From assembly GCA_963810305.1 (NCBI GenBank), contig CAWEMY010000011.1, positions 200,912 to 264,911 on the forward strand: a stretch of DNA of 64,000 bases, given 5' to 3'. A program made the position numbers and the translations under genes. The stretch comes from an uncultured Acidobacteriota bacterium. GTDB taxonomy: Bacteria; Acidobacteriota; Vicinamibacteria; Vicinamibacterales; 2-12-FULL-66-21. Numbering within the stretch: position 1 is the stretch's first letter; each line of letters starts with the position of its first letter. Of the stretch, positions 9,668 to 29,767 are shown piece after piece. The notes under the pieces are model-generated. The model was not told the DNA's origin and did no database searches. It saw only the letters and a program-made list of their open reading frames with translations.

Positions 9668-9711
9668 GCCAGTCCCTGGACGATTTTCTTGATCAGCTCC
9701 GTGGGCTGTAA

Positions 9712-10197: not shown

Positions 10198-10216
10198 TGT
10201 GAAAGGTTACGCCAGA

Positions 10217-11333: not shown

Positions 11334-11357
11334 GTGGGACTCTTTCTGGTATAACGC

Positions 11358-11996: not shown

Positions 11997-11999
11997 GCG

Positions 12000-12896: not shown

Positions 12897-14074
12897 TTCC
12901 GCGCCTCCTCCCTGAGCGCCTTGAGCAGTTCCTCGGGCAGCCAGTACTGCCCGTAGCGGTATCCCCACCACGGATCCTCGACGCCGAGTAGCGCGGCGCG
13001 TTCGACGTAACCCGCCGCTTCGCGTGCGTCGCCGCGACGCTGCGCGTTGTGGGCTCGGGCAATCAGCGAGCTTTGGTGTGTCGCCGTCTCGGCGAGCAGC
13101 GCAGCTGCGTCAGCCAATCGATTCTGACGGTCGCGGATCCGGGCGAGAAACAGCCTGGCGAGATAGCGCTCGCGTGCGTCGAGGGAGCGCGCGATCAGCT
13201 TTTCGAAGAGCTCAGCCGCCGCTCCGTCATCCTTCTGCTGCATGCGAACCTGAGCCAGCCGAAGGATCCCCTCAATGTTCGACGAATCGAGGCGCAGCGC
13301 CCGTTCGAGGTACTCGCGCGCGCGCTCGAGCATCTGCTTGCGAGCGAACCGCGCCGAACTGAGCTGCCGGACAGTCCACGAGAGCGTGCCGCCCGGTTCA
13401 ATTCGTCGGGCTCCTACTTCCGGACCGAGCGTTCTGAACACCCGCAACAGCGGCTCGCCCGCCAGTGAAGCGAATGTCTCATGGAGGGTCCCGCAGGCGA
13501 CAAACAAGGGGGCATACGTCTGCTTCTCGTGACAATGCGGCGTGAGGATGTGGTACGCATCCGTGAACTCGGCCTGCGCCATCCGCTGCAGTCCGATCGC
13601 CAGGATCCACTGCGCAGCAAAGGGATCTTGCTCGCCTGTGAGTGCAGCCGCGGCTCCAAAGGCATTGGTCGCGAGGGCGAGATGGTGGTCTGCAACACTA
13701 ACCGCGTCTCGATCCATCGGCAGCCCCGGATACATGGAATTCCGCGCCACGAGTGCCGCTTCCATGTGCAGTGCGGCGAGTGAGCGAAGGAGCCGCGGTG
13801 TCCAGGGGACGACATCTGTCGGTCTTGGCGGCCAGCCGGCCGCGATCCTTTCCATCTGGGCGCGAATGGCGCCGACGGCCTTCTCCTGCTCGTCTTTCGC
13901 CATCGACCCAAGCAGCTTCAGGGCCCCGGTGAGATCGCCGGACCGATATCGTTGGGTCGCTTCGTAACTGTGCTGAATCCACTGATCGACGGCGCTCTTG
14001 TTCTGATCGAAGGGGCCAGACCGCGGCGCCGCCGGGACCAGAAGGGCCGTGATCGTGAGCAGAACGACAAGCAT
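12893..14074 (-). CDS. TPR-repeat secreted protein
   Basis: The ATG at 14074 gives a signal peptide (MLVVLLTITALLVPAAP). Helical repeat content with TPR-like AxxYLxRAL segments. Confidence 0.7.
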   Translation of the reverse strand: MLVVLLTITALLVPAAPRSGPFDQNKSAVDQWIQHSYEATQRYRSGDLTGALKLLGSMAKDEQEKAVGAIRAQMERIAAGWPPRPTDVVPWTPRLLRSLAALHMEAALVARNSMYPGLPMDRDAVSVADHHLALATNAFGAAAALTGEQDPFAAQWILAIGLQRMAQAEFTDAYHILTPHCHEKQTYAPLFVACGTLHETFASLAGEPLLRVFRTLGPEVGARRIEPGGTLSWTVRQLSSARFARKQMLERAREYLERALRLDSSNIEGILRLAQVRMQQKDDGAAAELFEKLIARSLDARERYLARLFLARIRDRQNRLADAAALLAETATHQSSLIARAHNAQRRGDAREAAGYVERAALLGVEDPWWGYRYGQYWLPEELLKALREEARK

Positions 14075-14121
14075 GCTCTTATAAGCAGCGTAGCAGACCG
14101 CTGCTGCTAGAGTACCGGCTG

Positions 14122-14565
14122 ATGAAAACCGCGTGGAACGACGCCGACTATCGGGAGCTGTGTACCAGGCTCGATCGGCTGCAGGCGAGTGCATCTCCCA
14201 AATGGGGCCGCATGACCGCGCCGCAGATGCTCTGCCATTGCACTGACGCGCTGCGAATGGTGAGCGGAGCCCTGCCGACGGCACCCAAGAACGCGCCGAT
14301 CCGGTTTCCGCCGCTGAAGCAATTGATCATTTACTGGCTGCCGTGGCCGAAGGGTGTGCCGACCGCGCCGGAGCTGCTGGCGCGAGCGCCTTCCGAGTGG
14401 CACGGAGAGCTGGTAACGCTCCGCGAGGAACTTGCCGCGCTGGTGAAACGCGGACGGTCAGGGCCGTTCGTGCCACACCCCGCATTCGGGCGGCTGACAC
14501 CACGGGCGTGGGGCGTGCTGGTCTACCGGCACCTCGATCACCATCTTCGCCAGTTCGGCGTTTAG
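14122..14565 (+). CDS. DUF1569 (DinB-like) protein
   Basis: 147 aa. WGRMTAPQMLCHCTDALR...HPAFGRLTPRAWGVLVYRHLDHHLRQFG pattern. Confidence 0.75.
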   Translation: MKTAWNDADYRELCTRLDRLQASASPKWGRMTAPQMLCHCTDALRMVSGALPTAPKNAPIRFPPLKQLIIYWLPWPKGVPTAPELLARAPSEWHGELVTLREELAALVKRGRSGPFVPHPAFGRLTPRAWGVLVYRHLDHHLRQFGV

Positions 14566-14566
14566 C

Positions 14567-14704
14567 ACGTGCGACGTGCGGTGCCGGGTGCCAGGTGCGA
14601 CGTGCGATGTGCCACGTGCGGACGTGCGAACGTGCCAGGTGCGAACGTGCGCCTGGCGCACCCCGCATCCCGCGCCCCGCGCCCTGCGCCCCGCGCCCCG
14701 CGCG
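14567..14704. repeat. Composite heptamer array: NACGTGC-type (14567-14652) abutting a C-run type (14660-14704, G-quadruplex-type on the - strand)
   Basis: Read directly. It fills the whole gap between two convergent stop codons. Confidence 0.9.
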
Positions 14705-15340
14705 CTACGCTACGTGCAAGGCGATCACGAGAACCGGCCAGCAGACGAACGCAGCCAGAGAAAGACCGTACGGGCGGGGGATCGGAAGTGGCAGCACCAT
14801 CGCTACCGCTGTCGTCGTGAAGACGGCGATGGACGCGGCTGTGCCTGGGTTCAGCAGCAGAACAGTTGCCCAGACCAGTGCCGCGACGGGCGCGGGCAGG
14901 CCAATGAATCCGTCAGTCTGCTGGTGCGAAACGTTGTAGAACGCGAGTCTGCTGACGGCGCACGCGACGAAGAAGAACACCGACATCCACCAGAGAACTT
15001 CCAGGCCGGCTGACCTGTCCGCCGAAGCCTGGGCGAAGGCGGAAGCCGGCCTCCACCGCAACAGCAGCATGCACATGGCCGGTGCGACACCGAACGAAAC
15101 GGCATCGACAAGGCTGTCGAGTTGCTCGCCGATGGCGCGCTGATCCTCATCGCGCGCGAACAGCCGCGCGAAACGGCCGTCGAAGGTATCGAGAATGACG
15201 GCGACAGCGATCAGTGCGCCGGCGAGGCCGGGCGACCGCTGGCCGGCGAAGGCGATTGCCCCGAGAGCTGCCAGCAATGACGCATAGGTCAGCAGGTTGC
15301 CGGGATGAAAGCAACGCAGTGGAGAAGCGGACGCCGTCAT
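14705..15340 (-). CDS. CDP-alcohol phosphatidyltransferase (PssA/PgsA-like)
   Basis: DTFDGRFARLF...GEQLDSLVDAVSFG matches the D-x2-DG-x2-AR...G-x3-D-x3-D signature. Polytopic membrane protein. The ATG overlaps the upstream TGA (ATGA at 15337-15340). Confidence 0.85.
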   Translation of the reverse strand: MTASASPLRCFHPGNLLTYASLLAALGAIAFAGQRSPGLAGALIAVAVILDTFDGRFARLFARDEDQRAIGEQLDSLVDAVSFGVAPAMCMLLLRWRPASAFAQASADRSAGLEVLWWMSVFFFVACAVSRLAFYNVSHQQTDGFIGLPAPVAALVWATVLLLNPGTAASIAVFTTTAVAMVLPLPIPRPYGLSLAAFVCWPVLVIALHVA

Positions 15341-18007
15341 GCGGCGCGCTCCAGCGGAAACATCTGATACAGCGTTCGCCAGGTTCGGAGGACGCGCGGC
15401 AGGAACGCCTGGCTACGTACCCGATGGACGACCGCGTACATCGACAGCCGATTGATCAGCAGATCGTATAGAGCACTGCGAAATCCCTCGAGCCACACCG
15501 TTCGGTCAATCACGCCCCCGTGCTGCCGCTCCAGCGCGGTGCGATGTCGATCGATCCACGGAGCGACCCCTTCCAGCGTCGTATCGGCCGGCAGAACGAA
15601 GCAAAGAAACTCCGCGAGGTCACGCTGCGGCGCTCCGATTGTCGCAAGCTCCCAATCGTAGGCGCACAAGCGTCGCATCGCTGCCGCGCAGGCACACGTT
15701 GCGCGGATTGAAATCGTTGTGGATCAGCGTGCGCGGGCCACACTCCAGCGCCGGCCACCACTCTTCAACTCGCGTCAGCAGGCGCCGCTGTATGGCGATG
15801 ATGTCCGTGTCGGACCACGAGGAGAACAGCGGTGCGGCATGATCCGCGAGCGCGCTCCAGAGAGGCGACATCTCCGCCATGCCGCTGGTTGACGGAACAG
15901 ATCCGATCCACGGCCTGGCGCGCAACTCCGCCTCACGGCCGATCCAGATGGCGTGAAGCTCCGCGAGTCCATCGACCGCTTTCGCTATTTGCGACGGTCG
16001 CCATGTCGGATGCGCCGAGACGTCCGCCGCGACGACATCGTCGACGTATTCCAGAGCCGCGATCCAGGTGTGCGTTCCTTCGTCGGCGATGGATCCGAGC
16101 AGGGCAGGCGAGTGTCTACGGAAGCGCGGATCCTGTTGACGGTAGATCTCGATTTCCCGCTCATGTGATGCAGCGAATCCAATTCGGTCGCTGAACCGGC
16201 GATATTGCCGGCCGAGGGTTGGATCCACCAGCTCAGCGAGCGCTTCTCCGACCGCGATGACGTCTGTGTCGCGGGCCTTCACCTTCGTCATCACATCCCG
16301 GCGGCGCCCCTCGCCGTCGGTCAGCCGTACGCGGAAGAGCCCGGTCGTTCTTCCAGATCGCCACGCCGTGAGCTCGCTGATGATGCTGTGGTCTGAACCC
16401 GCGCCGAGGATCTCCACTTTCGAGATCGGCGTACGCAGAAGGCGGGAGAAGAAGGCGCGGTCAAGGGTGAGCGGCTCGACGGCGCGTTCAACAGTCGCTC
16501 TTGCATGCGGTGGGTCAGGCAGGTCCCCGGCGGCGCGGAACGCCGCAAAATACTTCTCGAGTAACGGTGCGTCGAGTGCGACGGCGAGGTGTCCCGTCCG
16601 GCGGAGGAGCGCTCGTGTCGCGGCGCCGGTTGCGTGCACACGCCTCCGTTCCTCGTACAACTCGGGTCAGTGTCAGCCCTCCTGTGCCGGCGGGACGTTC
16701 GAGGAAGAACGAGCGGAGCGGACGAAGCGGATGCGCGGCGCTCGTGGTGCTCAACGGCCGTGTCTCGCGCTCGAGCTGACGCAGCCACTCGTGGTACGAC
16801 ACCAGCCGGACGTCGTACCCGTACATCCTCATCCACAGCACGCATTCACGCCAGTGGCGTGGGCGATCGTGGCCGAGATGAAACACAGGTCCGCGCGCGC
16901 GTGACAGGCGGAGAATGGCGGCGGCCACGCGGTCTACCGGCTCGCAATCCAGATTCCAGTCCAGGTCCGGTGCGGTCCCCATCGCCACGCATCCGCGCAC
17001 CAGCGCCGAGATCAGGTCGTCGCGGTTGAACGCTCCATCAACGCTGTGTCCGGAGATCAGCGCCGGCCGATAGATGCGCACCGGAAGCCCACGGCCACCC
17101 GCCTGCCTCACCAGCGCCTCCGCCACGATCTTCGTTTGCGCGTATCCGAGATGCACACCGCGCAGTGCGGGCAGACTGTCGAGCGTCTCGTCCACGACAC
17201 GCGGGCCTTCCGTCGAGTAACACACCGACAGACTCGATATGAAATGGAAGGGAATTCCACGCCGGCACGCCAGCCGCAGAAGCTCCAGAGTCCCCAGGAC
17301 GTTTGCGCTCCTCAAGGCGCTGTATGTGAACACCCAGTTCACCGCCGCCCCGCAGTGAAGGACCGCGTCGACTTCGCTCGCGAGCTGTTCGAATCGTGCG
17401 TCGCTCAGGCCGAGGCGGGAGTGGCTGAGATCTCCCTCGAGCAACTCGATTCGAGGTTGTTGGGCCGGCTGAAGCCGGCCCCTACCGAGACCGGCGTGAT
17501 GGGCCGGCTGAAGCCGGCCCCTACCGGAGTGCGTAGAGGCCGGCTTTAGCCGGCCTGACTTGCGGCCTCACCAGACACACCAGGGTCGCCGACGTCGTCT
17601 CGAGAAGTTCCTGAATCAGCGCCTGACCGAGAAATCCCGTCCCACCGGTGAGCAGGATCTTTCGCGCGGAACGGAGATCCGTCGTTCGTGCGCTCCGTTT
17701 GGACGTACGAACGTCCGCCGGCAGGACGGCGTCGGCGAACATCTGATCGAAGGGATCTTCGTGCGCGCGGGTACGCGATTCCCTCGCGCATCAGACGCGC
17801 CGCCAGCGTCCTGGCGTCCGCGCAATCGGCGAGCACGTCCGCCGGCAGATCGCAACCGAGCTCCGCCTCCAGCGCCGCGGCAAGTTCGATCGTCGCAAGC
17901 GAGTCGAGCCCGAGAAGGTCGAACGGCGTTGCCGGGTCGATTTGCACGTCGGACCGAAGGCACCGTGCGGCCACGGCGGTGATCGTGGATTCGAGTTGTT
18001 CGGTCAT
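15337..18007 (-). pseudogene. ACP - thioester reductase - APH-like phosphotransferase fusion, read in several frames (frameshifts near 17775, 16660 and 15685, plus a REP insertion at 17462-17556). Either a genuine pseudogene or indel errors.
   Basis: ACP motif LGLDSL. Reductase N-terminus ILLTGGTGFLGQALIQELL, then HCGAAVNW and a YAQTK catalytic region. Reductase tail PLRSFFLERP / LYEERRRVHATGA...DAPLLEKYF. It runs without a stop into a kinase-like domain ending HNDFNPRNV / YDWELATIG. Confidence 0.75.
17462..17556. repeat. REP-like elements (family B): two direct copies plus one inverted copy, inside the reductase coding region
   Basis: gggccggctgaagccggcccctacc at 17462-17486 and 17501-17525. 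The inverted copy gtagaggccggctttagccggcct is at 17533-17556. Confidence 0.85.
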
Positions 18008-19722
18008 GACGTGGGTACCCCAGTTCGGGAGGGATCACTCCAGAAGGCGAGCAGCTGGAACTCACCCGCACGAAACGCCGCGCGGCAGAGGAAGCGTTGG
18101 AGCTTTCCGCTGGTAGTCTTCGGCAGGCTTCCCGGCGGCACGAGCGCGACGGCGCACGGAGACACCTGGTGCCGCTCGGCGACGGAACGCCTGACCGACG
18201 CGATGGCCTGCTGGAGGTCGCCGTCGGATTCCGACCGGGCGGGATCGGTCTCGGCGACCAGCGCAATGCATTCCTCTCCGTCGCGATCGACGGCAAAAGC
18301 CGCGCAGCAGCCCGGACGAACGGCTGGATGCGCTTGCTCCGCGGTCGCCTCGAGGTCCTGGGGATAATGCTTCACGCCGCGGACTATGAGGACGTCCTTG
18401 ATCCGCCCGGTGACGAACAGCCTGCCATCGACGATGCATCCAAGATCGCCGGTGCGCAGGTAGGGACCGTCGCCGGAGTCCGAGATCACCGCGCCGAAGA
18501 CCTGCGCCGTGTCCTCGGGCTTGTGCCAGTAGCCAGAGGCAACGCTCGGGCTGTTCACCCAGATTTCGCCGATGTCGCCGTCCGCCACGACGACGCGAGA
18601 TTCGGGATCGACGATGCGGATCGCGTGCCCGTCATCGATGACACCGGAGCTGACGAGGGAACGCCCGTCCGGCGTATCGACGAAGACCGGCCCATCCTCT
18701 GGACCGCTCGAAACCAGCAAGGTCGATTCGGCGAGACCGTAAGAAGGTCGCAGGGCTTCCCAGCGGAAGCCGCACGGAGCGAAGGTGCGATGAAAGTGTT
18801 CGAGGGTCGATCGGCGGACCGGCTCGGAGCCGTTGTACGCCAGGCGCCAGGTCCGCAGGTCGAGCGCCGAGCGATCTTCGTCACTGACGCGCCGCGTGCA
18901 CAGGTCATAGGCGAAGTTGGGTCCGCCGCTGTGGGTGGCCCCGTAACGCGAGATCGCCTGCAGCCAGCGCGCGGGTCTCTGGAGGAACGCCGCCGGCGAC
19001 ATCAGGTACGAGGGATAGCCGCTGAATACGGGCTGCAGCACCCCGTTGATGAGCCCCATATCGTGATTCACGGGAAGCCACGACACCCCGGCGCTCGTCG
19101 AGTCGTACCTCCCGAGAGCCGCGCCGCGGGCGAGGTTATCCAGCAGGTTCGCGTGTGTGACGACGACTCCGCGGGGTATCGCAGTGGAACCTGACGTGTA
19201 CTGCAGCAGCGCCACGCTGTCGGCGCCTGCGGACGGCGGACGCCAACTGTCCGCCGCTTCGTCTGGCACCTCTTCGACGTTGACCCAGCGAAGCCCCGAC
19301 AGTTCAGGCACGAGCGCCTGGAGCAGAGGCGCGCGCTCGTGAACAGCCGTTGACGACAGGACGAGCGTGACCCCGGCGTCCGCGATCATGCCTCGCAGAC
19401 GCGTGCTCGACCGGTCAGCGCGCGCCGAGGACGGCGGGTAGGTCGGGATCGCGATCGCCCCCGCGTAGAGGACCCCGAAAAACGCCGGAACGAAATCCAC
19501 TGACGGGGGCAGCAGGATCAGCACTCGCGCACCCGGCTCACTGTGCGAGGCGAGAACCGCCCCGATCGCTCGGCTGCGGGCATCTATCCGGGCCCACGTC
19601 AATGAGGCGTGTTCGCGCTCCCCAGCTTCGAGGAACGTGAACGCGGTATCGCCCCCCTGTGCCGCCGCCCGGTCGCGCAGCAGCTCGATCATCGATACCG
19701 GACCGTGTGTAGTCACGCGCAT
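18004..19722 (-). CDS. Fatty acyl-AMP ligase (FAAL-type adenylating enzyme)
   Basis: LQYTSGSTAIPRGVVVTH (A3 core), YLRTGDLG, GRIKDVLIVRG and KTTSGKLQR. Starts at the ATG at 19722. Intact, 572 aa. Its stop overlaps the ACP start (ATGA at 18004-18007). Confidence 0.9.
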   Translation of the reverse strand: MRVTTHGPVSMIELLRDRAAAQGGDTAFTFLEAGEREHASLTWARIDARSRAIGAVLASHSEPGARVLILLPPSVDFVPAFFGVLYAGAIAIPTYPPSSARADRSSTRLRGMIADAGVTLVLSSTAVHERAPLLQALVPELSGLRWVNVEEVPDEAADSWRPPSAGADSVALLQYTSGSTAIPRGVVVTHANLLDNLARGAALGRYDSTSAGVSWLPVNHDMGLINGVLQPVFSGYPSYLMSPAAFLQRPARWLQAISRYGATHSGGPNFAYDLCTRRVSDEDRSALDLRTWRLAYNGSEPVRRSTLEHFHRTFAPCGFRWEALRPSYGLAESTLLVSSGPEDGPVFVDTPDGRSLVSSGVIDDGHAIRIVDPESRVVVADGDIGEIWVNSPSVASGYWHKPEDTAQVFGAVISDSGDGPYLRTGDLGCIVDGRLFVTGRIKDVLIVRGVKHYPQDLEATAEQAHPAVRPGCCAAFAVDRDGEECIALVAETDPARSESDGDLQQAIASVRRSVAERHQVSPCAVALVPPGSLPKTTSGKLQRFLCRAAFRAGEFQLLAFWSDPSRTGVPTS

Positions 19723-20402
19723 CGCAGCTCCTGGTGTGTCCGCACAAAAAGCGCACGAACTTTTTCCTTGTTCTCGACGACGTCGGTCTCTTTCCAGTCG
19801 GTGGTGTGGATCGGCGGGCAGCACGTAGACGTCCACGATGCCGCGGCCTGCCCGATATCCGAGACCGGGATCGACATCGGTCGGGATGTGGAAATACATC
19901 GGCACGATTGGCGCGCGCAGAACGGTCGCGAGGTGGAATGCACCCTTGTTGAAGTGCCCGATGTCCCCGGTCGTGATCCGGCCCCCTTCGGGGCTCAGGT
20001 AGACCGATTCGCCCGTCCGCCGCAAGACCTCGCCTGCCCTGGTGAAGATGCGTCTGCGTTCGTCCGGCCGATCCTGCGGGACGGTGAAGAACGTGCCCAT
20101 CATCGACGCGATGAAGCCGAGCGGGATCCACTTGCGCAGGAAGCCACTCAGGAAGAAGCGGGTGTTCGGCAGACCCAGGGCAACGAGGATGAAGAGGTCC
20201 AGCGTGGACGTGTGGTTCGACACGTAGACGGTCTGGGTGCGCGGAAATGCCGTGTGTCTTCGCCGCCTGGGAGCGGCAGCGCTGCTGATGAACCCGCATG
20301 CGGACGCCGTAGCAGGCGCAGAATGCAGCGGGCGAGCAGGGTGGCGATGCGCGCGTACAGCCGCCGCGCGCGGAAGAGCGTCACGACGCCGAGCGGCAAC
20401 AT
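19713..20402 (-). pseudogene. PlsC-type lysophospholipid acyltransferase, read in at least three frames (shifts near 20250 and at the CCC run near 19816)
   Basis: NHTSTLD (H-x4-D) and PEGGR motifs lie in the frame of the 806-aa ORF. The conserved tail PPIHTTDWKETDVVENKEKVRALF with its own stop at 19713 is in another frame. The plausible N-terminus MLPLGVVTLFRARRLYARIATLL is in a third frame. Confidence 0.7.
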
Positions 20403-20460
20403 GCGCGACGGCCGTCAGCGTCATCAGCAGCGAGGCTGATGACGCCCAGTGCGATCGCCT

Positions 20461-21474
20461 TCACTGCGCCCTCCTGCAGATCACCGTCTGCATTGCCAGG
20501 TTCAGTCGTCTTTCGAACAGCAGCAGCGGCAGTAGCAGGATCTGTCCAACGAAGTAGGGGAAGATCGCCTTGTCCAGGTTCAGGCCACGCCCTTTGAGCA
20601 GGCGGAATGCGGCGCCCGTGAACAGGTAGAAGTACGCGGGGAAGGCGCCGTACGGCAGGTAGTCGACTACCTCGAGGCCGGACTTGCGCACGGCGCGCAG
20701 CAATGTGTCGCGGTCGAAAAGCACGGTGTGTTGCGGCGCCTGCAGACCCGGCCAGCGATTGCCGAACCAGCGGAACGTCCGGCTGTCGAGGCGCGGCACT
20801 TCAATCACGAGCCGACCCTCTGGTTTCAACACGCGCCGCGCCGTCTCGAGACTGCGCAGCGGATCGTAGTCATGCTCCAGGAAGTGCCACATCGTTACCA
20901 GGTCGAACCGGTCCGGCGCGAGATCCGCCTCGTAGAAGAGGCCGCAGTGAAACTCGACTTGCGCCAGTGAGGAGGCAGCGCTGAGGTCCTTGAAATCCAC
21001 TCCGCACACGTGTGCACCCGTCGTGCGGCGCAGCCGCTCGAGGAAGGTGCCCACCGCACACCCGACGTCGAGGACCTGACTCGAAGGTCCCAGCGACACG
21101 TAGCGGGAAACGATCCGATCCTTGGCGGCATCGAGCTTGTTCATCGCGCGCTCGAAGAGCGGCGTCAGCAATCCCCAATTGCGCTTCTTGCGATGCGCGA
21201 TGTAGGTGTCGTCGTAGTACCCAGCGATGTGTCGCAGCGACACGCGTGGATTCTGATAAGCGAGATCGCATCGCGTGCAGCGCACGAACTGAAACTCCCC
21301 GGGCGTGCCCCCGAGATCGTCCTGGGCGGTTACGAACGGGCGTGTCTCAGTCGCTCCACACAAGTAGCAGGAGACCCGTTCGAAGAAGTCGGCCGGCCGT
21401 CGAACCGACTGACCTGAGGCGGCCTCCAGGCCGGCGTACGAGTCCCGATCGACGACCGCGTCGATGACGTTCAT
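20461..21474 (-). CDS. Class I SAM-dependent methyltransferase with an N-terminal Cys4 zinc ribbon
   Basis: CYLCG...CTRCDLAY, then the SAM motif VLDVGCAVGTF and the WHFLEHDYDP motif. The ATG at 21474 overlaps the upstream TGA. Confidence 0.85.
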   Translation of the reverse strand: MNVIDAVVDRDSYAGLEAASGQSVRRPADFFERVSCYLCGATETRPFVTAQDDLGGTPGEFQFVRCTRCDLAYQNPRVSLRHIAGYYDDTYIAHRKKRNWGLLTPLFERAMNKLDAAKDRIVSRYVSLGPSSQVLDVGCAVGTFLERLRRTTGAHVCGVDFKDLSAASSLAQVEFHCGLFYEADLAPDRFDLVTMWHFLEHDYDPLRSLETARRVLKPEGRLVIEVPRLDSRTFRWFGNRWPGLQAPQHTVLFDRDTLLRAVRKSGLEVVDYLPYGAFPAYFYLFTGAAFRLLKGRGLNLDKAIFPYFVGQILLLPLLLFERRLNLAMQTVICRRAQ

Positions 21475-22037
21475 GAATGTCCTCCAACAAGCCGGGCAAG
21501 CGGACTGGCGGGGTCGTGCCATGCCTCGTAGACGCACACGATGAGATAGAGCACCATCGCGACAGAGAGAATCTGAACGGGCGCTTCGAGCACGCGCGAG
21601 CCCGCCACGATCCCCACCATCGCCGGGTACTTTGCGAGGAGCAGCTGCTCCCCTGCGACGCTGCGGCGGGTTCGGGCCAGGTACCAGACCCCCAGAGCGG
21701 CGGTCAGAACGGCAAGCACGCCGACGGCGATTCCACTCGGGTCCCGCCATATCGCGAGGCAGATATTCAGCACGGCGAGAGCACCGCACAAGGCCACGAT
21801 CTGCGTCCCTTCGCCGTCACGCACGAGCACCCGGCCCGGGTGCTCGACACGATCGCGGCCGCGGTCGGCCAGGTCGTCCCACATTCGGAACTGCGCCAGC
21901 AACAGCAGCGCGACCGCGAAGTCGATGGCGAACGACGTCCAGGACGCCGGTGGCACGATGACGGCCGCGGCAATCAGCAGCGCCAACGGCAGGAAGAGGC
22001 GGAGCCGGAAGCGTTCGCGGAGGTAGCTCACGACCAT
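21471..22037 (-). CDS. Small polytopic membrane protein with one Asp-rich motif (WDDLADRGRD; UbiA-like?)
   Basis: 188 aa from the ATG at 22037, with five or six hydrophobic helices. ATGA overlaps at both ends. Confidence 0.6.
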   Translation of the reverse strand: MVVSYLRERFRLRLFLPLALLIAAAVIVPPASWTSFAIDFAVALLLLAQFRMWDDLADRGRDRVEHPGRVLVRDGEGTQIVALCGALAVLNICLAIWRDPSGIAVGVLAVLTAALGVWYLARTRRSVAGEQLLLAKYPAMVGIVAGSRVLEAPVQILSVAMVLYLIVCVYEAWHDPASPLARLVGGHS

Positions 22038-24577
22038 CACCGCGCCTCCACATGGACGATCCCCTGGTTGCCGTCGACGACGACACGCGCGCCATGGGGA
22101 ATGAGGCGGGTGGCGTCCTTCACCCCGACGACAGAGGGGATGCCGAACTCGCGCGCGATGATCGCGCCGTGGGAAAGCATTCCGCCTCTCTCGATGACCA
22201 GACCCGATATGAGCGGAAAGATTGGCGCCCAGCCAGGATCGGTCTGGCGCGTCACCAGGACGTCCCCTTTGGCAAGCCGGTGCGACTCGGTGACGTCGAG
22301 CAGGATCGCGGCGTTCGCCGTCGTTCTTCCTCCGCATGCTCCGACGCCGGCGAGCTGCGCTTCTGGTTGTTCGATCCCCCTCGCACCGGGATGCGCTTCG
22401 GGCCGGAAGTATTCGCCGACCGGAATCGCCATCGAGTCAGGCGGCGTGGTCTTACTCAGTTCGGCGTGAGCGGCCTTGGTGATGTCGATGATTCGCGCCA
22501 GATGGTCCGGAAACATCGCGCCACCGGCAGCGAGCAGTTCGAGCTCTTCCGCGGTCAAATAGAAGACATCATCGCGGTGTGTTACGCGCCCCGTGGCGGC
22601 GAGCCGCTCGCCGATCTCGAGAGCGACGCGGCGCAGCCGGCTGTACAAGAGCGCCTGCTTCAACCGAGCGCGTTCCCGCAACTGAATCGACCGCTGTGTC
22701 CAGCGAAGGATCGTCGCGACGATCAGCCTTTGCCTCCAGCCGAGCGCAGCCAGCACTGCGTGGGTCTGCTCGAGGCGCTCGGACTTCTGTCGCTTCAATA
22801 AGTCGACAGGCGAGTCGCCGTCCAGTGCCGCATATGCCTTGAGCAGCTCGATGACGGGCGCGGGCTCTTCCTGGAAGCTTGGGACGGTGAGCATCAGTTC
22901 CGCGGAGCAGCGAAACCCCCAGTGCTCCAGATAGTCCTCGAGTGCCCCGCGGAAGGTGGCGAATCTGCTCGTCGGTGGAGAGCGCGGCGAGCACCTCATC
23001 GGGTCGTTGATTCCGAATCAGTGCAGTCAGCGCCTCGTCGCGGCGGATCATCCGCGACAGCTCCCACAGCCGCACGGCAGGAACGCCGCTCACCAGGTCA
23101 GGCAGCGCTTTGAGAAGGGAGTTGTGGAGTGACTGCTGGTCGCGGCCGGGGAACGAATGCGTCAGCAGCCGCTGAAGCGCTGCGTAACACACCATGGACG
23201 CCGCGTCAGCGAGTGACGCGTTCTTCCAGCGATGGCATCGTATGTCGATGAAGCCGCGGAAATCGTCCAGAAGCTCGGATTGGGTCTTCTGCTTCAGTCG
23301 CTCGGGACGAGTCTCGGCCGCGTAGTCATCGACTGTCTGTTCGAACTGTCGCACGCGGCTCGTCAGGAAAAGGTATTGCCAGGTGGTCTTTGCCGCGATC
23401 CACGCGAGCTCGAAGGCCTGGCGCACCCGGTAGGCCGCACCAGCGCGTGGGGTCGTGGTCTCCTCGGCCCCGACGAACTGGTTGAACGATGCGGCGAGCA
23501 GGTCTCCGAACGGCGCTGACCGGAGCACCGAGTGGATGCTCGTCAGGTTGTAGTACATCCGCGCGCCGTGGACGCCGATGATCTGGCGCAACGCCGGCTC
23601 CATCAGGCGCAGGCGGCGCTCAGAAATGCCGAAGGCGCTGCCCAGATTGCGGAAGTAGTGGTAGTAGCCGGCGCGCGCGATCGAATAGAGGAGCGGCGAA
23701 ATCGGCTGCGGGAAGTTCTCGTTGACGTTGGCGTTGGACCAGAAGCAGGTGCGTGGGTCCGTGGGCCCCTGGGTCCGGGCGGCATTGGATCCGTGGGTCG
23801 TAATCGGGCGAGACTGGACGATCCACAGCTTTCCAGCGGCGTCGATCGTCCACTCGATGTCCTGCGGGCAGCCGAACGCCGCTTCGATGTCGAGTGCGAG
23901 AGCCGCAAGCTCGGCGATCTTGACGTCGTTCAGCAGGACCGCCTCCGCAACCGGCACATCGTCCGGCGCCGCCAGGCGCACCCATCGTAGAGGCCGTCGC
24001 TGTCAGCCGGCCGGCTTCAGCCGGCCTGTCAGCCGGCCTGTCAATCGCAACCCGACCCGGATTCACCGCGCCCGAGACGAGCGCTTCTCCCATCCCTCCG
24101 CAGTACTCGACGAGCATCTGCTGCGGGTCGGTCGGCGACACCGTGAAGAGGACACCCGACAGCACCGCCTCCACCTGCCGCTGAACGATGATCCCCATCC
24201 CGTCGAGTGCCTTGCCACGCGCCTTCTGATAGGCGAGGACACGCGGTGACTGCTCGCGAGGCCCACACTCGTTCGATCGCTGAGCGGAGCAACGGCTCGG
24301 TGGTCACGTCGGCAACGGAATCGAGCTGCCCGGCGAATGAGGCATCGGCCGAGTCTTCGCCGATCGCCGAGCTGCGGACGATTACGGGCGCAGAGAGAAG
24401 CGGCATCAGCTCTTCGAACTCGATCGCGCCGGCGACGAGCACCTCGTTCGGGATGACAATCCCGTCGGGCACCCGCGCTCCCGCCGCCATGAGCCGGGCA
24501 AGGTTCGCCGCCTTGCCACCGCAGCCGGTGAGCTCTGTCGCTTCGGAGAGCGGCACAAGGGAAGTGAGGACGTTCAT
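22037..24577 (-). pseudogene. PEP-utilising phosphotransferase with rifampin-phosphotransferase-like architecture (PPDK_N ATP-grasp + central domain + C-terminal swivel His domain). Frame changes near 24250 and 22965, and a REP insertion at 23987-24043.
   Basis: N-terminus GGKAANLARL...VRSSAIGEDSADASFAGQLDS. Then SPRVLAYQKARG...GIIVQRQVEAVLSGVLFT and PQDIEWTID...LWIVQSRPIT. C-terminus TRQTDPGWAPIF...GGMLSHGAIIAREFGIPSVVG. The pieces lie in different frames. Confidence 0.75.
23987..24043. repeat. REP-like element (family B, with partial duplications) inside the PPDK_N coding region
   Basis: gtagaggccgtcgctgtcagccggccggcttcagccggcctgtcagccggcctgtca. The reading frame differs on its two sides. 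Confidence 0.8.
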
Positions 24578-25143
24578 GCCGGGCGCGCCTTCAATCCGAG
24601 TTGGAACATCACCACGCTGAAGACCCAGTGGATGGCGGGTCCGACAATCAGAACGACCGCCCACGTCTGCCACGGCATCGGCACGAGGACAGTCATGGCA
24701 AGCAGCATCCCGATCCCTGAGTCCAGACGGTCGGCCAGGAACTGAATCGCGGATGAAACGCGCTTGAACGGCGCAGCCCCGGGGACGATATCGAGCTGCC
24801 GCTTGACGAACGAGTTCGGCAGCTCGCCGGCCATGAATCCGAAGCCTGCCGCCGCACCTAGCGCCGCGAACCATCCAGTCGAGAGGTCCCACAAGCCGGC
24901 TGACGCGGGCGTGATCGCAGCCAGCAGCGCGAACGAGGCGGCCGCGGCTGGCACCATCACCACGAACCCGCGGATGGTCTTGTTCGCGCCGAAGAGCCTC
25001 CGCCGGCGAAAGCGCAGCCCGCCGTCGAGCGGCAGCGCGAACGCCCTCGACATCGGAGACGCGAACCACGCCGTCTGCGCAACGCCGGCGAGGGTGAACG
25101 CCAGCAGGATGAACGCGCCGCAGGCAGTCGCATCGAGCGGCAT
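24574..25143 (-). CDS. CarS-like (CDP-archaeol synthase / DUF46 family) CTP-dependent cytidylyltransferase
   Basis: 189 aa and polytopic. GANKTIRGF, GELPNSFVKRQL and LADRLDS line up with the archaeal CarS motifs G-D-G-K-T-W-R-G-F, G-D-L-x2-S-F-I-K-R-R and V-D-Q-L as I recall them. Confidence 0.65.
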   Translation of the reverse strand: MPLDATACGAFILLAFTLAGVAQTAWFASPMSRAFALPLDGGLRFRRRRLFGANKTIRGFVVMVPAAAASFALLAAITPASAGLWDLSTGWFAALGAAAGFGFMAGELPNSFVKRQLDIVPGAAPFKRVSSAIQFLADRLDSGIGMLLAMTVLVPMPWQTWAVVLIVGPAIHWVFSVVMFQLGLKARPA

Positions 25144-25150
25144 GGCGGTG

Positions 25151-26111
25151 CTAGACGTCAAAGCCGGTTTCCAATCGATTCTGGAACAGCAGGACGTCGC
25201 CGGGGATGCGCTTCGCCCGCGAGATCCACTGCCACCAGCCGATCTCGTTTTCAGGCGAGTACGGAATCCGGCGCAGGTGGTAGCCGGGCACGAATGGATA
25301 CATGTGATGCAGCTCGTGCGCGTCGAAATGAAGAACGAAGGCGGACGCCAGCGCGCGGCAGCCGGAGCGAGCGGGTAAATGGTTCCTGCTCGATCGCGGG
25401 GAACGGCTTGACCGCCGCTCCGTGACTGACGTTCTGAGGCACGTGGGTGTGCTGACTCAGAAGGAGCAGATCCTCCATCGCGAGGCTGAGCAGCAGCGCA
25501 AGGCCGCAGGCGCGAAGCATGGCTGCCGGCCCGAGGAGCGCCGTGACGACGGCATACAACGCGACGAGGGTCAGCACGTCCCGGACAAGCGCGCGCCGGT
25601 CGGACGGTTTCGGAAACATGCGCAGCAGCCGCGCGAGGTGCCAGTAGTTGCTCACGCGGTAGATGATGGAGAACAGCGGGATCCAGAGCCGCCAGCAGGT
25701 ATTGACCAGCGTCCGCTCGGCGCGCCCGAGCGGACGCGGCACCAGCGATTCGGTCGTCGGATCGAGGTCCTGCCAGCCCGTCCACTTGTGATGTCGTCCG
25801 TGGACGCGCGTCCAGGCGTGGTATGGGATCAGCGAGAAAGCGGCGGCGACCCGTCCTGCTGCCGCATGCCATCGGCGGGTGCGAAACAGCGTTTCATGCC
25901 CGCATTCGTGCAGGATCACGAACCACTGGACGAGCATGACGGCAAGGAGGGCCTGACCGCACAGCCACAGGACCCATCCGCCGGCGAACGACAGCACCAG
26001 GCCGAGCACCGTGCCCGCCGAGGCGATCGCGATCACCCGCAGCCCGGCCGCATTCGTCGCGCGGAGGTGAGTCAGGTCGGCCGGAAAAGGTGCCCCCTCG
26101 CTGCGTCCCAT
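25151..26111 (-). pseudogene. Membrane fatty-acid desaturase-family enzyme with one frameshift near 25345
   Basis: His boxes HECGH and HGRHH are in the ORF frame. The third box, HELHH (ALASAFVLHFDAHELHHMYPFVPGYHL), and the stop TAG at 25151 are in the +1 frame. Confidence 0.8.
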
Positions 26112-26129
26112 TGCGTTCTCCTGTCATCG

Positions 26130-26280
26130 TAGTCCAGCCCTTTAGGGCTGCCCATCGAAGGTCGTCCAGCCCTTCAGGGCTGTCGTAGTCGTAGTCCAGC
26201 CCTTTAGGGCTGTTTTCGTAAACAGCAGGCCAGCCCTTTAGGGCGTTCGTCTCCTCGAGTCCAGCCCTTTAGGGCTGTCT
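26130..26280. repeat. Array of five REP-like hairpins (family A: GTAGTC-CAGCCC-TTTA-GGGCTG)
   Basis: Hairpins at 26135-26150, 26167-26182, 26197-26212, 26231-26245 (degenerate) and 26262-26277, spaced about 30-34 nt apart. Confidence 0.9.
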
Positions 26281-26355
26281 GGTAACAGGAGCACGATAGG
26301 AAATCAGGGGATTCTGTGTCGTGACAGGGGGCTGAAGAAGTGTGAAGAAAACGTG

Positions 26356-27258
26356 TCAGCGGTCGCTCTTCCGTCGTTCCATTTCCTCCAGTGTTTTTGG
26401 CCAGTCCTGCTTGAGGAGCCGCGAGAGGGCCCGATCCGACAGCAGGCGACCCTCGGTCTGGCACGTCGCGCAGTAGTTGCACTCGTTGTGGGCGTAGACG
26501 ATCCGCTGGATTGGCGCACCGCAGGCGGGGCACGGCTTGCCGAAGCGGCCGTGTGCCGCCATGCCCTCGCGAAAGGCAGTGACCTTCTCGGGGAATCCCG
26601 CACCGACTTCGTCGCGCGTCCGCGCAATCCAGGCTTCCAGCGTCCGCTGCGTGGCGTCGAACAGCCGTGCGATCTCGGCGTCGGTCAGCGTTCGCGTCTG
26701 CTTCATCGGTGAGAGCCTCGCCGCGTGCAGGATCTCGTCGGAGTAGGCGTTGCCGATCCCGCTGAAAATCTGCGGATCCGTGAGCGCGCGCTTCAGCGTG
26801 TGATTCTCAGCCGTGAGCCGTCCGGCGAAGGCGGCAAGGTCCGCCTCCAGGACCTCGAGTCCGCCGCGCTCGAACTCCGTCAGGCCGGCAGCATCGCGGA
26901 CGAGATGAATCGACGCTTGCCGCTTCGCGCCCGCTTCGGTAAGCAGCAGCGTCCCGGAGGGAAAGTCGAACGCCGCCATCCCGACTTTCCCGGGAATCGC
27001 CGCGCCCGGATCGCGCCACCGAAACCGTCCCGCGATCATGAGGTGGACGACGATATACAAGTCGTCGTCGAACACGAAGACGACGCGCTTGCCCATGCGC
27101 CGCAGTGCCGTCACGCGCTTCCCCTGGAAGCTTTCTGGTGAGGGCTCGATCGTCCGGATGATGAAGGGATTCCCGATCCGAATCCGCTCCAGCGGCTGAC
27201 CGACAACTCGCGGCGTCAGTGCCTCCAGATAGATGACGATGTCGGGGAGTTCGGGCAC
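26356..27258 (-). CDS. Fpg/Nei-family DNA glycosylase / AP lyase
   Basis: N-terminal MPELPD (catalytic Pro2/Glu3), an H2TH region and a C-terminal zinc finger CPACG...CNYCATCQ. Confidence 0.85.
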
Positions 27259-27291
27259 TGCAGAAGTTTAGTGCCGGACTGCCCGCGCAGC

Positions 27292-29550: not shown

Positions 29551-29655
29551 TCACCCCCAAGGAGAGGGATCGTCCGCTACAGGGCAGCGTCCGGCGCAGC
29601 TGATTGGGGTGAGTTGGAGAATATCGGGGCAGACTGGACGACCTCCCCGGGGCCT

Positions 29656-29757
29656 GCGACCCGTGATCGACGACCCGTGCTCGACGCCCCGCGCTCCGCG
29701 AACTGCGCCGCGACCCGCGCTCCGCGACCCGCGAACCGCGAACCGCGAACCGCGAAT
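29656..29757. repeat. CGCGA(A/C)C heptamer tandem array
   Basis: Degenerate units from about 29656. Near-perfect units cgcgacc, cgcgaac x3 and cgcgaat at 29723-29757, ending 10 nt before the peptidase start codon. Confidence 0.9.
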
Positions 29758-29767
29758 ATACTGCGGC

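Follow-up and report, generated by a model that had tools for sequence, protein, structure and literature searches.

The DNA analysed here comes from a Vicinamibacterales (Acidobacteriota) soil bacterium and carries a nine-gene lipid operon, which is real and occupies positions 26111 to 14705 on the minus strand of a 64,000-nucleotide stretch (the window). Its product is probably an undescribed phospholipid, possibly with an ether linkage. No product is known, and no paper describing the operon was found in the literature.

Operon layout and gene breaks

The order and strand of the nine genes, named A to I from 26111 downwards, are those given in the original prediction. All of the start/stop junctions that it listed were also correct when compared with the ORF coordinates and the sequence: ATGA overlaps at 24574-24577, 21471-21474, 18004-18007 and 15337-15340, a TGATG junction at 22035-22039, a 10-nt overlap of genes F and G at 19713-19722 and a 7-nt gap between genes A and B at 25144-25150. 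A GTGA overlap of the methyltransferase and PlsC genes at 20461-20464 was absent from that list. Identical overlaps are present in the gene calls of an intact relative, L145. A sigma-70-like promoter was looked for and none was found, and terminator-like sites within the region were not in excess (8 observed versus 6.5 expected). All nine genes are closely packed and make up one operon, as had been proposed.

The leader between an Fpg-like gene and the operon (26112..26355, minus strand) contains four perfect copies of the palindrome CAGCCCTT(T/C)AGGGCTG (26135-26150, 26167-26182, 26197-26212 and 26262-26277) and one degenerate copy; the window holds 5 matches against 0.00 expected. Another palindrome, GGCCGGCTTCAGCCGGCC, lies inside gene C (24009-24026). 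Gene H contains three palindrome units of 36-39 nt, GGCCGGCT(GA/TT)AGCCGGCC, on the minus strand at 17463..17555. These units occupy a loop of the reductase domain and are in frame once an insertion at 17561 is removed, and the relatives L081 and L145 have two units each within an intact ORF.

Four genes are not intact ORFs as read, because of 13 single-base insertions in the operon: one in the desaturase gene, three in the PEP enzyme gene, five in the PlsC gene and four in the ACP-thioester reductase-APH gene. Twelve were pinpointed (25355, 24253, ~24028, 22964, 20430, 20404, 20311, 19815, 17775, 17561, 16667 and 15669), and the thirteenth lies in the PlsC gene, somewhere in 20253-20281. The original prediction was silent on frameshifts from assembly error, its wording "corrected protein" being the only hint. 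It could be argued that the operon is decaying into a set of pseudogenes, disabled by these frameshifts and by the insertion of palindromic elements, since frameshifts seem several-fold denser here (13 over 11.4 kb) than elsewhere in the window (about 5 candidates over 52.6 kb) and palindromic repeats lie inside two genes. We consider this very improbable. All 13 insertions are +1 changes at non-homopolymer sites, and none is common to three relatives of 87-94% nucleotide identity. The short-read relatives L145 and L081 have all genes intact, whereas a long-read assembly that is 94% identical (L146) has different +1 insertions of its own; the source contig, at 681,761 bp, also suggests a long-read assembly. 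The palindromic units are in frame and are present inside intact orthologues too. Repair leaves no stop codons and preserves the catalytic motifs, and dN/dS after repair is 0.10-0.19 for all genes, the broken genes being equal to the unbroken ones. Judged from these ratios, every gene of the operon is under purifying selection. Long-read assembly errors, rather than decay, are the most likely cause of the breaks, because the relatives lack the insertions, two of them are intact and dN/dS is this low after repair.

The encoded enzymes

Pfam domain calls were judged against gathering cut-offs. The predicted domains held for eight proteins, and the small membrane protein (gene D) fell below threshold. 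Five of the nine proteins (A, B, D, F and I) are integral-membrane lipid enzymes, and catalytic motifs are intact across the enzyme families of the operon.

Three genes provide fatty-acid activation, reduction and acylation. Gene G (18004..19722, minus strand, intact) encodes a fatty acyl-AMP ligase (FAAL) of 572 aa (AMP-binding, 206.2 bits). Its top PDB matches are all FAALs (7R7E at 9e-141, 3KXW, FadD32, FadD23 and FadD28), while CoA ligases in the PDB match at 1e-22 or more weakly. Gene H (15337..18007, minus strand, broken) encodes a fusion of about 887 aa of an ACP (PP-binding, 46.7 bits; GLDSL), a thioester reductase (NAD_binding_4, 183.7 bits; GGTGFLG and YAQTK) and an APH-type kinase (APH, 42.8 bits; HNDFNPRN and YDWE). 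The reductase assignment, on which the original prediction partly depended, is upheld by the Pfam score and by TIGR01746 (259 bits, cut-off 213). Gene F (19713..20464, minus strand, broken) has a GTG start and encodes a PlsC-type acyltransferase of about 250 aa (PF01553, 60.0 bits) with the motifs HTSTLD (HX4D) and SPEGGR; once repaired, it has no stops and a dN/dS of 0.108.

Three further proteins resemble archaeal lipid enzymes. Gene B (24574..25143, minus strand, intact) encodes a 189-aa CTP:lipid-phosphate cytidylyltransferase of the CarS family. That assignment, already made from the sequence, is supported by PF01864 (37.1 bits, cut-off 22) and by a profile of the CarS-like family, in which NKT, KR and DxxD motifs are invariant and whose sole match among all PDB sequences is Aeropyrum pernix CarS (5GUF, E 2.5e-8). 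Gene I (14705..15340, minus strand, intact) encodes a 211-aa CDP-alcohol phosphatidyltransferase (PF01066, 51.1 bits) with the motif DTFDGRFAR...GEQLDSLVD. Its best NCBIfam model is archaetidylserine synthase (88 bits, under the cut-off), and its nearest PDB entries are the Methanocaldococcus jannaschii phosphatidylserine synthase structures 7B1K and 7POW. Gene D (21471..22037, minus strand, intact) encodes the small "Asp-motif" protein of 188 aa and six helices, with the motifs DDLADRGRD and ExxHD. It scores 19.4 against the Pfam UbiA cut-off of 34.2; it has invariant residues, and its homologues carry PF01040. The AF2 model (pLDDT 93) has as its top two PDB folds in Foldseek the M. jannaschii DGGGP synthase structures 6M31 and 7BPU (prob 1.0, TMq 0.67), and on this modelled fold the protein is predicted to be a UbiA-fold intramembrane transferase. 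The family is small and separate (826 representatives among 1.84 billion), and in this lineage it is without the three C-terminal helices that other phyla have. B, D and I are all under equivalog cut-offs. The archaeal character of the operon is stronger than had been noted, since this small protein best matches the DGGGP synthase fold.

The remaining genes are A, C and E. Gene A (25151..26111, minus strand, broken) encodes a membrane di-iron fatty-acid desaturase/hydroxylase of about 319 aa (PF00487 FA_desaturase, 78.8 versus 29.7 bits) with the His boxes HECGH, HGRHH and HELHH; the L145 orthologue is intact at 319 aa. Gene C (22037..24577, minus strand, broken) encodes a rifampin-phosphotransferase (RPH)-like dikinase of about 840 aa, with an ATP-grasp domain, a substrate domain and a His swivel domain with GGMLSHGAIIARE (PPDK_N 150.3 bits, PEP-utilizers 86.3 bits). 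The nearest PDB entries are Listeria RPH (5FBS/5HV1, E 5e-59), and the L145 orthologue carries PF27448 Rph_4th. In NCBIfam it scores 451 bits with NF004881, the RPH/PEP-synthase-like group, and is under every cut-off (RPH 265 versus 999; RedH 315 versus 1350; PigC, at 257, also below). RPH converts a substrate hydroxyl and ATP to the phospho-substrate, AMP and Pi (PMC4844700). Gene E (20461..21474, minus strand, intact) encodes a 337-aa class I SAM methyltransferase (Methyltransf_23, 85.6 bits) with a four-Cys zinc ribbon at the N-terminus and a hydrophobic tail at the C-terminus. No other protein encoded in the operon is as well conserved (56-84% identity in the fetched loci), and the best fold matches of the gene E product are zinc-ribbon C-methyltransferases of NDP-sugars (MtmC, TcaB9 and KijD1).

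Distribution and relation to known systems

With the gene E methyltransferase as bait, the operon was found in about 200 of 185,579 species, mostly uncultured and patchily spread over at least ten phyla. The nearest relatives are Vicinamibacterales MAGs, and a single isolate, Nannocystaceae ST9, is among the 160 locus matches listed (99 distinct loci). The original prediction missed this spread far outside Acidobacteriota. Conservation was counted in 57 distinct species-level loci with full flanks. The six-gene core A-F is present in 47 of these and collinear in 40, in Acidobacteriota, Gemmatimonadota, Planctomycetota, Myxococcota, Nitrospirota, Proteobacteria and others. Genes C-D-E are always adjacent and are the most conserved part of the core. 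The genes are co-localised in dozens of genomes, as the operon hypothesis demanded, and the conservation of gene order far exceeds chance, as 40 of the 57 distinct loci at species level, from many phyla, have the same order. No further gene family is common across phyla in the flanks of these loci.

FAAL/TR-APH is present in 40-48 of the 57 loci (the reductase and kinase being adjacent in 45 of 46) and the CDP-alcohol transferase in 34. These genes are accessory to the six-gene core, a status that had also gone unnoticed. Some Planctomycetes keep the core without FAAL and TR-APH. Beside it they have a second enzyme with PPDK_N and PEP-utilizers domains and a protein resembling acyl-ACP reductases, which scores 50.8 bits with TIGR04058 and 63.7 bits with the PigE N-domain, in both cases under the cut-off. 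From their domains, these neighbours might be a replacement module that reduces and then phosphorylates.

The Myxococcus xanthus elb locus (ElbA-E) has been linked to the formation of alkyl ether lipids in aerobic bacteria, and its ElbD combines FAR-like, ACS, ACP and AGPAT domains (PMC9131029). Both systems combine a carrier protein with acyl activation, reduction and an acyltransferase of the AGPAT/PlsC type, and the likeness to ElbD in domain content was stated correctly in the original prediction. However, the four activities are fused in ElbD and divided here among three genes, one of which joins the reductase to an APH kinase instead. The HAD-like ElbB, the NAD-epimerase ElbA/ElbE and ElbC are absent from the operon, and elb has no CarS, UbiA-like, RPH-like, methyltransferase, desaturase or CDP-alcohol transferase genes. 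Identity with the elb locus was rejected on these grounds. The elb-like clusters of sponge symbionts are defined by elbD/elbB homologues; CDP-alcohol phosphatidyltransferases adjoin them in two clades, and CarS-, UbiA- and RPH-like neighbours are not mentioned (bioRxiv 10.64898/2026.06.23.733905).

Gene C has the domain architecture of RPH and the PigC/RedH/HapC dikinases (ATP-grasp, substrate-binding, His-swivel) together with their catalytic His motif (PMC4844700), but lies in a lipid operon and not in a resistance or prodiginine context. FAAL, carrier and TIGR01746 reductase recall the modules of FadD-type FAALs, NRPS/PKS terminal reductases and carboxylic acid reductases, from which the operon differs in the C-terminal fusion of its reductase to an APH-fold kinase. 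We know of no characterised precedent for this fusion. As in the bacterial CdsA/PssA route, the operon combines PlsC-type acylation, a CTP-activated lipid phosphate and a CDP-alcohol transferase for the head group, but its cytidylyltransferase is of the archaeal CarS type and not CdsA; a review states that these two enzymes tell archaeal from bacterial substrates (PMC9385802). The archaeal phospholipid pathway is represented by one relative each of DGGGP synthase, CarS and archaetidylserine synthase, and gene B matches 5GUF over its whole length. Unlike that pathway, the operon has a bacterial host and adds FAAL, ACP-TR-kinase, PlsC, RPH-like dikinase, methyltransferase and desaturase. It also lacks glycerol-1-phosphate dehydrogenase, GGGP synthase, polyprenyl synthase and geranylgeranyl reductase, all of which are absent from the whole window as well.

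The proposed product

The best explanation, which we infer and hold only tentatively, is that the operon makes an unusual CDP-activated membrane phospholipid with a hydrocarbon part from a reduced fatty acid. FAAL would adenylate a fatty acid and pass it to the carrier domain of the ACP-TR-kinase protein, whose thioester reductase would free the chain as an aldehyde or alcohol and whose APH-type kinase would convert the alcohol to an alkyl phosphate. A second phosphorylation by the RPH-like dikinase may give an alkyl diphosphate-type donor, or may turn a lipid alcohol into the phosphate required by CarS. The DGGGP-synthase-like enzyme would then create an ether bond between the chain and a hydroxyl of a glycerol-phosphate-type backbone, and the PlsC-type enzyme would acylate the remaining hydroxyl. 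The CarS-like enzyme would convert the lipid phosphate and CTP to a CDP-lipid, the phosphatidylserine-synthase-like transferase would add a serine-type head group, and the membrane-anchored methyltransferase and di-iron desaturase/hydroxylase would act in tailoring.

Several observations weigh against this scheme. None of the carriers has a known lipid product, and neither the operon nor the window encodes a glycerol-1-phosphate dehydrogenase, GGGP synthase or polyprenyl synthase. The diphosphates used by UbiA enzymes are allylic or anomeric; a saturated alkyl diphosphate is a poor electrophile and, to our knowledge, is without precedent as a UbiA donor, nor do we know of diphosphate synthesis by RPH-like enzymes. 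An ether-forming role of gene D has against it the failed Pfam UbiA cut-off, an E-value of only 3e-3 for the DGGGP synthase fold and the absent last three helices. The NDP-sugar C-methyltransferase-like fold of gene E is left unexplained.

It is possible, though unlikely, that the operon makes an alkyl or diol phospholipid without glycerol, with the TR-APH alkyl phosphate itself standing in for phosphatidic acid. Gene A would hydroxylate near C1, PlsC would acylate that extra hydroxyl, the CarS-like enzyme would make a CDP-alkanol for head-group addition by the CDP-alcohol transferase, and C, D and E would serve another step, e.g. head-group or carrier chemistry. Such a route requires no unprecedented UbiA chemistry and accords with the constant reductase-kinase fusion and with the lack of a glycerol-phosphate enzyme in the operon, and a lipid phosphate suffices for CarS-type and CDP-alcohol enzymes. 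It leaves no role, however, for the always-adjacent C-D-E, and the core persists without FAAL and TR-APH. In addition, Archaeoglobus fulgidus CarS is reported to be selective for DGGGP over bacterial phosphatidic acid and A. pernix CarS to have two wide lipid-binding grooves (PMC9385802). These grooves are adapted to isoprenoid chains (PMC9385802), which, with the best fold match of gene D, would suit a hybrid lipid instead: D would take an ordinary allylic polyprenyl diphosphate supplied by central metabolism, as genuine DGGGP synthase does, and couple it to a glycerol phosphate that bears a fatty acyl or fatty alkyl chain, and the CarS-like and PSS-like enzymes would complete a mixed archaeal/bacterial phospholipid. 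We regard this as improbable; non-allylic chemistry is avoided, but no polyprenyl synthase, GGGP synthase or geranylgeranyl reductase was found in the operon, its conserved flanks or the window, and two kinases are left without an obvious substrate.

A little less credible still is a specialised metabolite or lipid-linked carrier of an "NRPS-like" cluster, not a bulk membrane lipid. Gene C would be an ATP-dependent condensing enzyme, related to PigC/RedH, acting on the aldehyde released by the reductase, and the methyltransferase substrate would be a nucleotide-linked intermediate. The RedH and PigC scores of gene C (both below cut-off), the PigE-like substitute reductase of Planctomycetes, the fold of gene E and a rare, patchy occurrence like that of accessory metabolite clusters all speak for it. 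Nevertheless, more than half of the proteins (A, B, D, F and I) are integral-membrane lipid enzymes, and gene C is closer to the NF004881 group than to PigC.

For the preferred CDP-activated phospholipid, the etherification, CDP-activation and head-group steps would, by analogy, copy the archaeal order from DGGGP synthase through CarS to archaetidylserine synthase; in archaea the CarS step falls between DGGGP synthase and head-group transfer (PMC9385802). Since FAAL/TR-APH and the CDP-alcohol transferase are not universal, the core may act on another substrate. In the operon of this soil bacterium, a fatty-acid-reducing module is joined to relatives of three archaeal membrane-lipid enzymes, and its product is therefore probably a phospholipid that has not been described.

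Organization, conservation and spread of the operon

Nine coding regions were confirmed on the minus strand at 26111-14705, in the order that the original prediction had given: a desaturase (A), a CarS-like protein (B), a PEP enzyme resembling rifampin phosphotransferase (RPH; C), a UbiA-like membrane protein (D), a methyltransferase (E), a PlsC acyltransferase (F), a FAAL (G), an ACP-thioester reductase (TR)-APH kinase (H) and a CDP-alcohol phosphatidyltransferase (I). All of the start/stop junctions named in that prediction are correct, and a further GTGA overlap, which it had not listed, is present at 20461-20464. The predicted domains were examined by a Pfam search at gathering scores, run on proteins after joining the split pieces of the same gene. 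FA_desaturase, CarS-like, PPDK_N plus PEP-utilizers, Methyltransf_23, Acyltransferase, AMP-binding, PP-binding plus NAD_binding_4 plus APH, and CDP-OH_P_transf all exceeded these scores; the sole exception was the 188-aa membrane protein D, which did not reach the UbiA threshold (PF01040, 19.4 bits vs 34.2). Terminator-like sites were not in excess within the operon region (8 seen vs 6.5 expected), and the promoter and terminator scan gave no informative signal.

A search of 185,579 species, each represented by one genome, retrieved 205 relatives with the methyltransferase of the window as bait and 208 with its Myxococcaceae orthologue. Ninety-nine distinct loci were fetched, and 57 had adequate flank on both sides. 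The PEP enzyme, the methyltransferase and PlsC occur in all 57 of these, the desaturase and the CarS-like protein in 55 each, and the UbiA-like protein in at least 49; the kinase domain is found in 48, the reductase domain in 46, FAAL in 40 and the CDP-alcohol transferase in 34. The reductase and kinase domains are adjacent in 45 of 46 loci. The neighborhood is conserved: the six-gene core (A-F) is entire in 47/57 loci and collinear on one strand in 40/57. Clustering of the other flanking ORFs across loci revealed no additional family common to several phyla, and the borders of the operon are therefore sharp.

The operon is spread over about 200 species of at least 10 bacterial phyla, nearly all uncultured. 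Among the carriers are Vicinamibacterales, Pyrinomonadaceae, Thermoanaerobaculia, Solibacteraceae and Gemmatimonadaceae. Others belong to Pirellulaceae and other Planctomycetota, Myxococcota, Nitrospiria, Gamma- and Betaproteobacteria, Omnitrophota, Bdellovibrionales, Binatia and Bacteroidales. Among the matches listed, every record is a MAG except for one isolate, Nannocystaceae bacterium ST9. In Planctomycetota the CDP-alcohol transferase gene sits upstream of the desaturase gene, and five Planctomycete loci (L043, L046, L051, L052 and L077) are without FAAL and TR-APH. Beside PlsC these five encode a 616-aa protein and a 728-aa second PPDK_N/PEP-utilizers protein (e.g. L046 11849-15854, minus strand). 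The C-terminal half of the former is like acyl-ACP reductase and the PigE N-terminal domain, below the cut-off. We read this pair, on such sub-threshold likeness for its putative reductase, as a non-orthologous replacement of the 'reduce, then phosphorylate' module.

Directly upstream of the operon (26359-29112, minus strand) lie genes for an Fpg/Nei DNA glycosylase, a LytTR response regulator and a LytS-type histidine kinase. The related assembly L146 shares this layout, and in L002, L005, L006, L010 and L145 Fpg likewise precedes the operon; beyond Vicinamibacterales this neighborhood is not conserved. A DUF5777 membrane beta-barrel gene and a divergent PAP2 lipid phosphatase gene stand side by side (32109-33866), some 6 kb away from the operon. 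The window also holds a tRNA-Ala(GGC) gene (61493-61573).

Frame changes and palindromic elements

Four genes of the operon switch frame repeatedly as read. The possibility that the operon is decaying into pseudogenes in this genome was considered seriously, as frameshifts identified by a frame-tracking model look several-fold denser in the operon than in the remaining window. However, comparison with three related assemblies spanning the region, together with dN/dS, speaks against such decay. These are L081, a short-read farmland scaffold with 87% nucleotide identity to the window; L145, also a short-read scaffold, in which the operon is complete and its genes are intact (319, 195, 840, 188, 337, 250, 582 and 875 aa); and L146 (ENA ERZ25039504 contig_22188, locus 5359-16784), an independent 2.14-Mb contig with 93.8% identity and alike in its wider synteny. 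Relative to all three, every frame change in the operon is one surplus base at a non-homopolymer site (25355, 24253, ~24028, 22964, 20430, 20404, 20311, 19815, 17775, 17561, 16667, 15669 and one within 20253-20281). The operon of L146 has its own single-base insertions at other sites, and its gene calls are shattered elsewhere. Removal of the surplus bases left zero stop codons and 87-93% amino-acid identity to L081, and after this repair dN/dS was 0.10-0.19 in broken and unbroken genes alike. The contig that holds the window methyltransferase is 681,761 bp long, a length suggestive of long-read assembly. Because the relatives are without the insertions, no stops remain after repair and dN/dS is uniform, we attributed the frameshifts, from these comparisons of sequence, to errors in the consensus and read the operon in its repaired frames; the pseudogene explanation was rejected. 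The concentration of errors in the operon remains unexplained, and lower read depth of an accessory region may be one possibility.

Outside the operon, the frame-tracking model gave five candidates. That at ~30513-30516 falls in an M28 peptidase gene (29441-31478) and was confirmed as +1 against L146 and three other relatives' loci (L006, L011 and L025). Those at ~41540 and ~42295 are both in a MacB-like permease gene (40275-42937), and those at ~59181 and ~59693 both in an unannotated minus-strand gene around 58119-60622, again +1. All of the candidates in the window shift frame the same way. In practice, long-read MAG contigs of this lineage bear random +1 insertions that shatter gene calls, and public long-read assemblies cannot be relied on for the gene calls of this lineage.

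Apparent gene fusions proved to be out-of-frame read-throughs in other error-prone assemblies and not real fusions: desaturase-CarS (L006), D-methyltransferase (L010 and the public-collection protein P0035), PEP enzyme-D (P0164) and PlsC-FAAL (L019). On a short-read Pyrinomonadaceae contig (L060 6106-7812), the UbiA-like protein and the methyltransferase form one 580-aa ORF with a linker rich in Glu, Asp and Thr. This fusion, alone among those seen, might be genuine and was not relied on.

Two palindrome families were also observed. A REP-like palindrome, GGCCGGCT..AGCCGGCC, occurs five times in the window vs 0.01 expected (sites at 17463-17555, 24009-24026 and 31533-31550; also L081 about 5590-5660). 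Three tandem 36-39-nt units stand in frame within the TR-domain coding sequence (17463-17555), and in L081 and L145 an intact ORF contains two of them (translated ...SARLKPASTDPGRGRLQPAHE...). Since the units are in frame and number three in the window vs two in these relatives, the element lies in a protein loop and is variable in copy number, in which it closely resembles Rickettsia palindromic elements. The exact unit was found in 0 of the first 80 loci from other species. The 230-nt leader immediately preceding the operon (26135-26277) holds four perfect copies of the second family, CAGCCCTT(T/C)AGGGCTG, together with a degenerate fifth, and another site of this family lies at 60780-60795 in the window. 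L006 carries three copies within the PEP-enzyme gene (8942-9027), and in L081 (about 5098-5128) and L145 the 3' end of the FAAL gene bears a 30-nt insertion in which a near-copy (CAGCCCTTTAAGGCTG) is found. This family could be a leader hairpin, an insulator or a regulatory site.

Family assignment of the encoded proteins

The CarS-like protein B matches PF01864 with 37.1 bits (gathering score 22) over residues 38-186, and a profile of 21 orthologues had a single match among PDB sequences, A. pernix CarS (5GUF, E 2.5e-8), over nearly the whole length. K56 (NKT), K117-R118 and D141/D144 are invariant, and the NKT, KR and DxxD motifs can be read in the sequence. The score against PRK04032, the CarS equivalog, is 57.8 bits and the cut-off of 148 is not met; B is therefore taken as a CarS-family enzyme and not as an orthologue of archaeal CarS, with formation of a CDP-lipid inferred. 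For the CDP-alcohol transferase I, PF01066 scores 51.1 bits vs 22, the motif DTFDGRFAR...GEQLDSLVD fits D-x2-D-G-x2-A-R...G-x3-D-x3-D, the closest PDB structure is M. jannaschii phosphatidylserine synthase, and the NCBIfam model nearest to it is that of archaetidylserine synthase, at a score below cut-off. Serine specificity is not supported by the equivalog profiles, since neither cut-off was met (TIGR00473, 79.4 vs 107; NF038087, archaetidylserine synthase, 88.2 vs 240).

Although the UbiA domain of D fell below its threshold, many close homologues bear a precomputed PF01040 match. A profile of the D family had no match among PDB sequences, and only fold comparison succeeded. The AF2 model (pLDDT 93, pTM 0.88) had the DGGGP synthase of M. 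jannaschii (6M31 and 7BPU) as its top two Foldseek matches (probability 1.0, TMq 0.67-0.68, E 3e-3); next came trans-prenyl synthases, AfUbiA (4TQ6) and 8J8J, a membrane phosphoribosyltransferase. D is thus predicted, from the model, to have the all-alpha intramembrane UbiA fold. The first Asp motif (N/DDxxDxxxD expected) is invariant at D62, D63 and D70 in alignment A1, and the position of the second motif holds an invariant ExxxD (E177, D181) instead of DxxxD; the residues invariant in the family are R, DD..D...D, R, Y, KY and E...D. The family is small, with 826 representatives at E <= 0.001 among 1.84 billion. The Vicinamibacterales form of D does not have nine transmembrane helices but six long ones, in 186-190 aa; in Gemmatimonadota, Myxococcota, Nitrospiria and Planctomycetota the protein reaches about 260-290 aa (L016, L023, L026 and L038 compared). 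The Vicinamibacterales protein ends straight after the second motif, without about three helices. Despite the missing helices, D (21471-22037) is under purifying selection (dN/dS 0.148).

Protein C contains PPDK_N (150 bits), PEP-utilizers (86 bits) and the catalytic-His motif of the swivel domain, GGMLSHGAIIARE. It shows the architecture of RPH-like dikinases, with ATP-grasp, substrate and His swivel domains. An orthologue has the Rph_4th domain, the nearest solved structures are of Listeria RPH (5FBS, E 5e-59), and the RPH equivalog NF041857 was not met (264.9 bits vs 999). RPH converts its substrate and ATP to phospho-substrate, AMP and Pi (PMC4844700), and condensing members of the RPH/C family are also described, namely PigC, RedH and HapC (PMC13534948). 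All of the best PDB matches of G were FAALs (9e-141 to 1e-69), with CoA ligases at 1e-22 or weaker, and the NCBIfam FAAL subfamily fell below its cut-off (439 bits vs 775). Judged by these matches, G is nearer to characterised FAALs than to acyl-CoA synthetases. The reductase domain of H exceeds TIGR01746 (259 bits vs 213) and scores 183.7 bits for NAD_binding_4, its kinase domain scores 42.8 bits vs 23.2 for APH, and the motifs GLDSL, GGTGFLG, YAQTK, HNDFNPRN and YDWE are present; phmmer found no relative of the APH domain in the PDB.

The three His boxes of the desaturase A and the HX4D of F are legible. In the methyltransferase E, a zinc ribbon precedes the Rossmann methyltransferase core and a hydrophobic tail follows it. 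By fold it is matched best by MtmC, TcaB9 and KijD1, which are zinc-ribbon NDP-sugar C-methyltransferases (TM ~0.55), with generic natural-product and phosphoethanolamine methyltransferases next; such matches do not fix the substrate. We also considered A and E as a pair for mid-chain methyl branching, modelled on the tuberculostearic acid route or the 5-methyl groups of branched GDGTs. This idea was not supported, since the fold of E is not cyclopropane-synthase-like and no reductase for a methylene intermediate is present.

Possible products and significance

CarS and DGGGP synthase are held to be hallmarks of the archaeal side of the 'lipid divide'. Among bacteria, synthesis of archaeal-type lipids has so far been proposed for Candidatus Cloacimonetes, which possess GGGP and DGGGP synthases but are without CarS (PMC7852524). 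The operon has four activities in common with elb, the ether-lipid locus of Myxococcus xanthus (PMC9131029), but neither its architecture nor its neighbors. PlsC, FAAL and ACP-TR-APH are separate genes here, whereas ElbD is a single protein (reductase, ACS, ACP and AGPAT), and ElbB (HAD-like), ElbC and ElbA/ElbE (NAD-dependent epimerase family) are absent from the nine genes and their conserved flanks. Membership in elb was thus rejected; the elb-like clusters of sponge symbionts are defined by elbD and elbB. A search of full-text literature found no paper describing the gene set, which is not proof, as most subscription journals were not covered. The operon combines known enzyme families in a new way, and no product of it is known.

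The observation behind the original prediction holds, and its interpretation is supported as far as sequence analysis reaches. What is demonstrated at that level comprises the enzyme families and their motifs, the structure of the operon, its conservation and the fusion of reductase and kinase. The order of steps is an inference from family functions and from the archaeal order, in which DGGGP synthase is followed by CarS and then by the serine transferase (PMC9385802). The fatty alcohol made by FAAL, ACP and TR would be phosphorylated and used as alkyl donor by the DGGGP-synthase-like UbiA enzyme, which would form the ether bond; the archaeal-type CarS and the serine-synthase-type transferase would then complete a phospholipid. 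The product of the operon is quite likely a CDP-activated lipid built from a reduced fatty acid. That this lipid is an ether phospholipid is tentative and falls a little short of an even chance, and we consider it unlikely, on present evidence, that these steps together constitute a third, archaeal-style route to ether lipids in bacteria.

This reading is weakest at the donor of the UbiA-like enzyme. The diphosphate donors of known UbiA enzymes are allylic or anomeric, and we know of no precedent for a saturated alkyl diphosphate in this role. Three other products are kept open because this donor is without precedent: a glycerol-free alkyl or diol phospholipid, a hybrid isoprenoid/fatty lipid and a specialised metabolite.

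The ether-lipid route, if true, would not depend on those through AGPS, ElbD and PlsAR/Ger. It would also provide a candidate ether-forming system in Acidobacteria, a phylum suspected of branched GDGT production, and a natural case of archaeal-type enzymes acting on fatty-acid-derived chains. The operon is a defined, clonable 11-kb unit, in which such action and new ether-forming chemistry in Acidobacteria can be tested. The presence of CarS-family, DGGGP-synthase-like and PSS-like enzymes in one operon with a bacterial fatty-acid reduction module points to an undescribed class of lipids in soil, freshwater and marine bacteria.
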